Part shown: piece after piece, positions 25,198 through 26,869 of the stretch
How the letters are laid out: every line of letters starts with the position of its first letter
How positions within the stretch are numbered: the stretch's first letter is position 1
From: a virus
Taxonomy: Duplodnaviria; Caudoviricetes
IMG/VR virus record: IMGVR_UViG_3300010356_002264
Strand: one strand, 5' to 3'
Length of the DNA stretch: 64,000 bases
Made by a program: the position numbers and the translations under genes
Notes under the pieces: generated by a model
Database searches by the model: none
Seen by the model: the letters and a program-made list of their open reading frames with translations, nothing else
What the model was told of the DNA's origin: nothing

Positions 25198-25391
25198 TTG
25201 GTCACGGGTCCGACGGGATCGCCAGGGCCTCGCCGACCTCGGCGTTAAGGAGGGCTGCCGGAACAGGCTTCTGCGTTGCTTGGTTCCGCAAGCTGGAGGA
25301 GTACACAGGTAACGCAACGGGTTGAGGTGTGATGCTTGCACCCTAACTCCGAAGGGCCGTGTTGGGGTGACCTGACACGGCCCTTCCTTTT
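25198..25391 (+). ncRNA. Candidate small structured RNA or leader ending in a terminator
   Basis: TTGACA(25163)-18-TAACTT upstream; serial hairpins; GAAGGGCCGTGTTGGG/CCTGACACGGCCCTTC followed by CTTTT. Confidence 0.45.
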
Positions 25392-25401
25392 GACCCTCTG
25401 C

Positions 25402-25508
25402 AATCTTTTTTCGGGTACGAGGTCCGACCTGCAATGTTTTTTCGGATTAGAGGCCATTCTCGTAATCTTTTTTCGGGTACGAGGTCCGACCTGCAATGTT
25501 TTTTCGGA
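25402..25508. repeat. Two identical 45-bp direct repeats, containing four AATSTTTTTTCGG boxes at 31-bp spacing
   Basis: Boxes start at 25402, 25433, 25464 and 25495. Confidence 0.9.
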
Positions 25509-25539
25509 GAAGGGCCCAGCCAGGCCCAGGAGGAACGTC

Positions 25540-26209
25540 ATGAACAGCATCCTGGTAGAAGTGAGGGCCGCCGAGGGCGGCGACGACGCGAAGAACCTCG
25601 TGCGCCAGCAGGTACGCATCTATGTGCGACGCTGCGAGCGGAGGGGTCTTTAGCGCGGCTCTCGTTGAGGAGCGACCGGGGATCGCGATCCTTGAGGTGT
25701 CCGGCGCCGGCGCGGAGGCAGCCTTTGCGGACGAGCCCGGCGGGCACCGGTGGCAGCGGGTCCCCGAGACCGAGAAGCGGGGGCGCGTCCATACTTCTTC
25801 GCTGACGGTCGCCATCCTTCCTGTAGCGACAGACGCTGAGGTAGATGTACGAAGTTCCGACTTTGAATGGCAAGCCACCCGAGGCAGCGGAGCAGGAGGC
25901 CAGCATCGCAATAAAACGAGCTCAGCCGTCATCTTGCGTCATATACCGACGGGAATCGTGGTCCGCTGCGAATCGGAACGCAGCCAACACAGCAACCGAC
26001 GCACCGCGATGTCCCTCCTCCTGTTCAAGCTGAGAACCCAGAGCCAAGAGGGTGCGCAAGCAGGCCGAGCCAAGCTGCGACGTGATCAAGTTGGAAGAGG
26101 GTGTCGCGGAGATAAGATCCGTACGGTCGCCGTTCAGCGCGACGAGGTTGTCGACCACCGACTGAACAAACGCTGGAGCTACCGCGAGTATGAGCGAGGA
26201 GGATGGTAG
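25540..26209 (+). CDS. Class-I peptide release factor homologue (RF1-type PxT, lacks domain 1), requiring a +1 frameshift at codon 37; ~222 aa
   Basis: ILVEVRAAEGGDDA in frame 0; GGHRWQRVPETEKRGRVHTS, GSGAGGQHRNKT, CESERSQHSN and RGDKIRT in the +1 frame. Confidence 0.9.
25640..25654 (+). other. Programmed +1 frameshift cassette GGAGG-GGT-CTT-TAG-C
   Basis: Same geometry as the prfB signal: internal SD, 3-nt spacer, CUU-stop-C. Confidence 0.85.
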
Positions 26210-26213
26210 GCCG

Positions 26214-26828
26214 CTAGGCGGCAGCATGCGGGCATACCCCTCCGTTGACCGCGCGTCCGCAGTTGCAGTTGAAACATAGCACTCGGTACCCGTCTGGATA
26301 CTTCTGCCTCTTCAACCACCTATATAGTTTCCCGTGGAGGTCGATACGATGCTTCTTGCCTCCACCCATCACGTGGTCGATGGTTAGGAACCCGATTCGG
26401 TCCTCTCTGCAACATTCGCAACGTCCCCCATAGGCCGTCAGTACCTCAACCTTCAGGGTCTGTTCGCGCTTCCGAAGTCGGAGCTTGCACCGATCACACC
26501 AACGAGGTCCCTCTCCCTCACATTTTGGCGCCCCACATCGAGGGCATAAAGTAGGGTCGACTTGGTGGGCTTCGCGTCTCGTCTTTCCCTTCTCTTGGTA
26601 CTTCTCCCGACATGCGGTGCAGAGCTTCCCCGGGGAGTCCAGCGGACCTCGACAATCCGCGCATCTTCCTGACGCGACTAGCGCGGCCTTCCTCCGCCGG
26701 TCATACTCAATAGCGCAACCACATGTCTGTTTACCAAGACGCGGCGGGTTCGTCCCACACCTGACACAGAGTCCGGCCTCTTGGAGGGACTTACGCCTGG
26801 CGGTTTGCCAGGCTGTCTTCTTGTTCAT
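26214..26828 (-). CDS. Zn-finger-repeat HNH endonuclease (free-standing, homing-type)
   Basis: Multiple CxxC; CECC...LTIDH...LCFNCN; atypical codon usage. Confidence 0.8.
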   Translation of the reverse strand: MNKKTAWQTARRKSLQEAGLCVRCGTNPPRLGKQTCGCAIEYDRRRKAALVASGRCADCRGPLDSPGKLCTACREKYQEKGKTRREAHQVDPTLCPRCGAPKCEGEGPRWCDRCKLRLRKREQTLKVEVLTAYGGRCECCREDRIGFLTIDHVMGGGKKHRIDLHGKLYRWLKRQKYPDGYRVLCFNCNCGRAVNGGVCPHAAA

Positions 26829-26869
26829 ACTTCTACGCTGGCCATAAACCCAGCACAAAAACATCCTGG

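Follow-up and report, generated by a model that had tools for sequence, protein, structure and literature searches.

Can a release factor of the RF1 type be controlled by the stop codon UAG within its own gene, as the mirror image of the circuit known for RF2? A +1 frameshift at a CUU-stop sequence is a textbook example of translational autoregulation, held to be specific to RF2, and the feedback has been demonstrated for prfB. The gene described here carries a sequence of the same kind, with UAG as the stop, inside an RF1-type factor gene of a huge phage. In a survey of 8164 genomes, the cassettes of prfB contained TGA in 98.6% and TAA in 1.4% of the cases and TAG in none, and this absence of the non-cognate stop was used as an argument for autoregulation (PMC12421855). 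For prfA, no programmed frameshift was found in a survey of 12,753 genomes (PMC12421855). Our literature search retrieved no paper on a frameshifted short RF1-type factor.

The organization of the gene is given in Table 1, with positions in the window, which is the whole stretch of 64,000 nucleotides analysed. Each element on which the original prediction relied was confirmed in the sequence: the ATG with its AGGAGG, the 37 codons, the string GGAGG-GGT-CTT-TAG-C and a remainder with PET and GGQ in the +1 frame. Read by codon, frame 0 ends in CGG (25639-41), AGG (25642-44), GGT (25645-47), CTT (25648-50) and TAG (25651-53), and the C that follows (25654) provides a weak stop context, as in prfB-type cassettes. 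The frame-0 segment encodes the conserved RAAEGGDDAK, in which the EGG motif is invariant, and frame 0 is conserved across the family. The PET tripeptide (25763-25771, domain 2), the GGQ motif (25895-25903, domain 3) and, after them, domain 4 are all encoded in the +1 frame. When CTTT is read as one step, a joined protein of 222 aa is obtained (P0001). Gene callers split the gene into an ORF of 37-39 aa and one of ~195 aa, for which ATG 25622 is a possible start that lacks a Shine-Dalgarno (SD) sequence.

Table 1. Features of the release-factor gene and of the region upstream of it.
Feature	Position	Strand	Remark
Hairpin terminator, 12 bp, then CTTTTG	25352-25387		5' of the repeat leader
Leader, about four copies of a 31-nt T-rich repeat	25402..25518	+	Candidate promoter/regulatory region of the release-factor gene
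Shine-Dalgarno AGGAGG	25527..25532	+	Initiation at ATG 25540; 7-nt spacer; read from the sequence
Frame-0 segment, 37 codons, ATG to CTT	25540..25650	+	First strand and helix alpha-5 of release-factor domain 2
Internal SD-like GGAGG	25640..25644	+	3 nt (GGT) 5' of the CTT codon
Shift site CTT TAG C	25648..25654	+	Slippery Leu codon, in-frame amber stop, +4 C
+1-frame segment, 185 codons and stop TAG (26207-26209)	25652..26209	+	Rest of domain 2, domains 3 and 4

Upstream of the gene, the phage-wide motif CAGCTC-N18-CGAC is absent, and the classical AGGAGG is found there instead. Elsewhere in the window, CAGCTC-N17-19-CGAC occurs at 15 sites (e.g., 13959, 14231, 36104 and 46889), where 1.6 are expected. 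Downstream, an HNH gene (26214-26864, minus strand) merely adjoins the release-factor gene. A replacement of the 3' end of the gene by this HNH element was considered and rejected, since the C-terminus of the protein aligns with its relatives to the last residue.

The prfB-style +1 cassette postulated in the original prediction is present. As in prfB, an SD-like GGAGG, three nucleotides, CUU, a stop and C follow each other within a class-I release factor gene. In contrast, the two sites are not positionally homologous: the phage site is located in domain 2, at codon 37, and that of prfB in domain 1, at codon 26. The phage factor differs from that of prfB also in being of the RF1 type (PxT) and in its UAG stop, which is variable across the family. 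The prfB gene of the bin that includes the phage contigs (L059, G000:C168) has the canonical CGGAGG-TTT-CTT-TGA-C after 23 codons; a cassette of this kind is therefore in use in this community.

The release-factor gene is not unique and is one member of a large family. DNA of relatives was taken from species genomes, IMG/VR and metagenomes, and the loci were classed by the frames of their N- and C-terminal motifs. Around 870 stretches were positive by tblastn (348 viral and 518 metagenomic), and the best 80 of the 348 and the best 80 of the 518 were read. Among the matches listed, a +1 shift at the same codon is required in 124 of 137 non-identical relatives; CTT directly precedes the stop in all 124, and GGAGG (a match of at least 4/5) stands at the exact 3-nt spacing in 85 of them. 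The +4 base is C in 110 and G in 21 of the 136 shifted loci that were counted before identical proteins were merged, again among the matches listed. The starts of the +1 ORF are not conserved among the relatives.

The 13 unshifted members have CTC, TTT, TTC or CTG at the site, use other Arg codons (CGN) and lack the SD, with the exception of L142, in which the SD and CTT are kept and apparently only the T of the stop has been lost. A similar loss is known for prfB (PMC12421855): some members of the family no longer shift, and the shift has nearly always disappeared together with the SD and CTT. Because the unshifted members lack CTT and the SD, it is the nucleotide signal, and not just the Arg-Arg-x-Leu peptide, that is selected in the shifted ones. 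A natural restoration of the frame was found in L263 (7539-8210, protein P0122) and its cluster mate P0004, two distinct sequences in which one G of a GGGG run has been lost (CGGAGGGTCTTTAGC). A continuous ORF of 223 aa reads through the fossil CTT-TAG site in both (GTCTTTAGC). These restored genes fuse both frames, and the joined protein is therefore the product.

A diverged strain, in which the 16-nt site is unchanged and no indel is present, is represented over positions 25540-26400 by contigs from runs X4 and X5, which belong to two other studies. An extra T introduced by error, or a continuous ORF in the homologues, had been named as the outcome that would speak against a programmed shift; X4 and X5 exclude the former for practical purposes, and the latter is limited to the small unshifted minority. 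All five substitutions before the site are at third positions of frame 0, and 19 of the 24 after it are at third positions of frame +1. This pattern indicates purifying selection on both frames, switching at the shift site. Based on these comparisons of sequences, the programmed +1 shift is very probably real.

The same X4/X5 strain differs by ~15% from the window over 25590-25780 and is identical to it over 25781-26400, a range that takes in the beginning of the HNH gene. The change from one range to the other suggests that a recombination breakpoint lies within the release-factor gene, beside a homing-type endonuclease. At the repeat block 25402-25518, this strain has 298 unrelated bases.

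A different arrangement was observed in other homologues of the short release factor: an in-frame stop occupies the same codon position, and the gene then continues in the frame in which it began. They include L023 (Gemmobacter caeni DSM 21823), L024, L026 and L030 (Sphingomonas/Sphingobium), L025 and L022, and further L145-L152, L166, L062, L063, L115 and L116. Examples of the site are GGC TGA CTG, where RF1 has the Trp of KGW, CTC TGA ATG, and TAT TAG ATG in a 467-kb phage. In these cases, programmed readthrough seems to have taken the place of the frameshift; a crude comparison of coding density gave no clear sign of a reassigned code in these homologues.

The joined protein P0001 is matched by the Pfam domain PCRF at residues 2-90 (profile positions 100-194 of 194), corresponding to the second half of this domain, and by the full RF-1 domain at residues 99-207. 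The NCBIfam prfA models TIGR00019 (cut-off 423.25 bits) and NF001859 (cut-off 400 bits) give it 202.5 and 205.4 bits, respectively. These matches are confined to model positions 105-326, with one prfA match extending over 113-326 of 361. In comparison, the score is 142 bits for RF2 and 94 bits for PrfH (TIGR03072, cut-off 166.65). That all of these scores are below the NCBIfam cut-offs is explained by the missing domain 1. Chains of solved RF1 structures match P0001 with an E-value of about 1e-44, in one alignment that runs straight across the junction. The residues used by RF1 for decoding are kept: a Gln before the loop, Pro-Glu-Thr, and His-Thr after it, in addition to GGQ. RF1 of T. maritima and of E. 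coli aligns with the pattern Q..P.T....HT. GGDD, the acidic tip of helix alpha-5, is likewise kept. Given these residues, UAG is a codon that the short factor should read.

Since P0001 arises solely from the four-letter step at CTTT, the structure was modelled for the natural frame-restored relative P0122, which is 64% identical to P0001, with an alignment of 33 unshifted relatives. The model has a mean pLDDT of 88.6. The frame-0 segment forms a strand (3-12) and a helix (14-35) at a pLDDT of 90-96, and is therefore an integral part of domain 2. Superposition on ribosome-bound RF1 gives a TM score of 0.92 with an rmsd of 1.8-2.0 A, while TM is 0.81-0.89 for ribosome-bound RF2 and 0.68 for PrfH. 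By sequence and by predicted fold, the joined protein resembles RF1 more than it resembles RF2 or PrfH, so that an RF1-type factor devoid of domain 1, as originally described from PET, is borne out by the decoding residues and by the late start of the prfA match. Like canonical RF1 (prfA), it has domains 2-4, PxT, GGQ and the decoding residues, and its best matches in both sequence and fold are to ribosome-bound RF1. Unlike canonical RF1, it is phage-borne, lacks domain 1, is frameshifted and measures 222 aa instead of about 360.

The product is likely to be an active RF1-type terminator, judging from what is conserved in it. According to a passage of PMC1586002 (citing Mora et al. 2003), a truncated RF1 without domain 1 keeps its codon specificity and release activity and works in vivo, domain 1 being dispensable for codon recognition and peptide release. 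A compact RF1 of this kind, without domain 1, is therefore probably independent of RF3.

The probable phage origin assumed for the gene was substantiated. The window corresponds to contigs C103, C98 and C242 of a 7.2-Mb bin (G000), joined end to end (about 271 kb), and the carrier is a huge phage whose genome measures at least 271 kb and whose source is activated sludge or wastewater. Its genes include 48 tRNA genes, among them two for tRNA-Leu(GAG), one tmRNA, phage-type helicases, a CCA-adding enzyme, an HNH endonuclease and a DNA ligase. A large part of the tRNA genes, 43 in number and covering nearly all amino acids, is found in one array (G000:C242, 38974-57100); the tmRNA (C103, 13260-13618) has the tag ANDNSVRLAA. 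Scans for tRNAs and Rfam families in the 64-kb window identified five tRNAs and no suppressor, and no suppressor tRNA was found in the ~271-kb element. Searches of the neighbouring ORFs against PHROGs and Pfam left most of them without matches.

The phage uses TAG for 141 of its 245 stops (~58%), against 868 of 3623 (24%) in the rest of the bin, which has the same GC content (Fisher p 5e-27). Five contigs of the sister clade also have TAG-rich neighbourhoods, with 43-83% TAG according to the collection's own gene calls, and their cassettes have TAG in three cases, a fossil TAG in one (L263) and TGA in one. The clade of the window is thus mostly of the TAG type, as seen in the window itself, L260, L261, L262, the sixth sister L004 and the fossil site of L263. 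Another contig of the bin, C37 (155 kb), has 61% TAG and may represent the remainder of this phage's genome.

Across the family, the identity of the stop varies. Among the matches listed, the cassette stop of the 124 distinct shifted relatives is TGA in 89 (72%), TAG in 29 (23%) and TAA in 6 (5%); the 136 shifted loci before merging of identical proteins give 97, 33 and 6, respectively. Mapped on the maximum-likelihood tree, the cassette stop has switched between TGA and TAG about 20 times, and well-supported branches force no fewer than 6 of these switches; the members with TAA are the expected intermediates between the two. The closest relative among the matches listed, P0003, is encoded on a 393-kb contig and is 76% identical, also with PET. 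Its cassette has an identical CGGAGGGGT-CTT but continues with TGA-C, in a neighbourhood with 22 TAG, 10 TGA and 3 TAA stops (22/35 TAG, by the collection's own gene calls). A check proposed with the original prediction was whether the homologues keep SD-NNN-CTT-TAG at the same position. They do keep the position and the CTT, and in most cases the SD, but only the minority given above keeps the TAG.

The stop type was also compared with other characters. No association was found with the Thr of PxT or with TAG-rich flanks (p 0.5-1), in a comparison that is underpowered, with only 4-6 well-supported independent pairs on the tree. Nine viral contigs with TAG cassettes have a median of 26% TAG and ten with TGA cassettes 19% (12-34 kb each), a difference that is not significant and that concerns phages outside the clade of the window. 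In the same contigs, the fraction of TGA is lower in the TAG type (p 0.04), and so is the GC content. For the genes that flank TAG-type loci, TAG stops amount to 39% versus 27% (p 0.025, by a statistic that ignores kinship).

The proposal that the sensor codon equals the factor's own specificity, as a mirror image of RF2, thus fits this gene, in which UAG is combined with PET, but not a family that mostly has TGA and in which even the nearest relative has TGA. By these counts, a sensor stop matched to the specificity of the factor is not a designed or conserved feature of the family. Following the logic applied to prfB, the mixed stops argue that self-sensing is not what keeps the cassette family-wide. 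On this comparison, the family shares a cassette whose stop is interchangeable, and UAG is a lineage-level choice, not a family-wide mirror image of prfB.

For the phage itself, the reading that we favour, with modest confidence, is a 222-aa class-I factor of the RF1 type without domain 1, made only via a programmed +1 frameshift in a loop that probably closes on itself. CUU (Leu37) would be in the P site and UAG in the A site, with the internal GGAGG, 3 nt upstream, pairing with the tail of the 16S rRNA. The peptidyl-tRNA-Leu would then re-pair on UUU, after which AGC would be read. This slip would compete with termination at UAG-C, which is open only to RF1-type factors. More capacity for amber termination would thus lead to less full-length factor, and little amber termination to more of it, the loop in this phage acting on the factor itself. 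We infer the slipping, its dependence on RF1 and the termination by the short factor at UAG, and hence the self-feedback. In a phage that closes ~58% of its genes with TAG and whose factor keeps the residues for RF1-type decoding, the loop probably closes on the factor itself. An active product would compete at the A-site UAG, which would result in negative feedback in the UAG version, whether selected for or not. That this feedback is meaningful in this phage seems, from the sequence features, a possibility slightly short of even. The strongest form of the proposal, in which the UAG-gated short factor would be a virus-encoded homeostat of amber termination in a TAG-rich clade, and a true functional mirror of prfB, is rather unlikely.

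Equally doubtful, in our estimate, is that the cassette acts as a throttle or as a sensor of the state of the host, without self-feedback, for which any slowly read stop would suffice. The yield of the factor would then be low or fixed, or raised whenever termination in the host is generally impaired; UAG would be the outcome of drift in a TAG-rich genome, and the short factor would have no measurable effect on its own site. Several of the observations above agree with this. Each of the three stops is found at the site, with frequent switches; the nearest relative among the matches listed pairs TGA with a PET factor; and C or G at +4 in nearly all members constitutes a weak context for any stop. 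TAA, the stop read by both host factors, is the rarest at the site. The enrichment of TAG in the flanks of TAG-type loci could stem from a common bias in mutation or usage just as readily as from tuning. On the other hand, any active RF1-type factor must compete at a UAG in the A site, which makes some feedback unavoidable if the product is active, and the clade of the window joins TAG-rich genomes with mostly TAG cassettes.

A factor for rescue or quality control, similar to PrfH or ArfB, would act on stalled, damaged or non-stop ribosomes, and the stop would only gate its synthesis. PrfH (RF-H, paired with RtcB), another short homologue of release factors, likewise has GGQ and lacks domain 1, and the phage also has a tmRNA. 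In the family, the tripeptide (PPT, PPN, PPS, PET and others) often ends in Asn, Ser or Gly and not in Thr, and the codon-recognition loop is deleted in one member from a huge phage. In contrast to PrfH, the factor of the window keeps the PxT codon-recognition loop, with Gln, Pro-x-Thr, His-Thr and the acidic tip of alpha-5, and its 94 bits on TIGR03072 are below the 166.65 of the cut-off and far from the 202-205 bits on the prfA models, in line with the fold (TM 0.92 to RF1, 0.68 to PrfH). No match to the RtcB family was found in the 10 neighbouring ORFs scanned (19.4-32.3 kb). ArfB consists of the GGQ domain and a basic C-terminal tail alone, whereas the phage factor has a codon-recognition domain; the ArfB model matches only residues 98-133 of P0001, with 41.8 bits (cut-off 100), and domains 2 and 4 are present. 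A role in rescue is therefore improbable.

Finally, the split made by the gene callers could mean that nothing is programmed and that the gene is a pseudogene, an assembly error (the extra T) or a 195-aa ORF initiated at ATG 25622, but this is very improbable and is excluded for practical purposes by the same-codon shift with CTT in 124 diverged relatives, the independent strain assembled without an indel, the selection on both frames, an invariant EGG motif and helix alpha-5 encoded in frame 0, and a start that is neither conserved nor preceded by an SD.

The nearest viral analogue of the favoured reading, a short RF1-type factor made through a programmed shift, is the class-I release factor of Mimivirus and Megavirus, which requires a frameshift and a readthrough and was interpreted by its authors as autoregulation in the bacterial style (Jeudy et al. 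2012, PMC3521657). In both systems, a virus-encoded termination factor depends for its own synthesis on recoding at internal stops. Unlike the phage factor, that of Mimivirus and Megavirus is of the eRF1 type, belongs to eukaryotic viruses, is unrelated in sequence and uses different signals. Huge phages and stop-recoded phages carry RF1 or RF2 as part of a large translation toolkit (Al-Shayeb et al. 2020, PMC7162821; Borges et al., bioRxiv 10.1101/2021.08.26.457843), and neither a frameshift nor a short form of the release factor is mentioned in these two studies. In those phages, the factors are linked to reassigned stops, whereas here TAG is the main stop and no suppressor tRNA accompanies it.

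The finding indicates that a cassette of this type can evolve independently and work with any stop, here at a different place and in a gene of the RF1 type. The RF1-specific UAG is carried by this phage and by about a quarter of its relatives among the matches listed. The idea of a mirror image of RF2 is reduced to a testable hypothesis for this phage clade, and would hold at best at the level of the lineage. The natural UAG, UGA and UAA versions of one switch offer a way to test what such cassettes really sense, which is of interest to researchers working on termination and recoding, and the compact RF1 without domain 1 might be a useful reagent. If the homeostat were real, the phage could end most of its genes in UAG in hosts that keep little RF1. 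The family would then consist of recoding switches, with a +1 shift at UGA, UAG or UAA or, in other branches, an in-frame stop, that would tie the supply of phage termination factor to the state of termination in the host. The locus also draws attention to phages in which termination capacity would be managed together with 48 tRNAs and a tmRNA, and in which TAG stops are unusually preferred.
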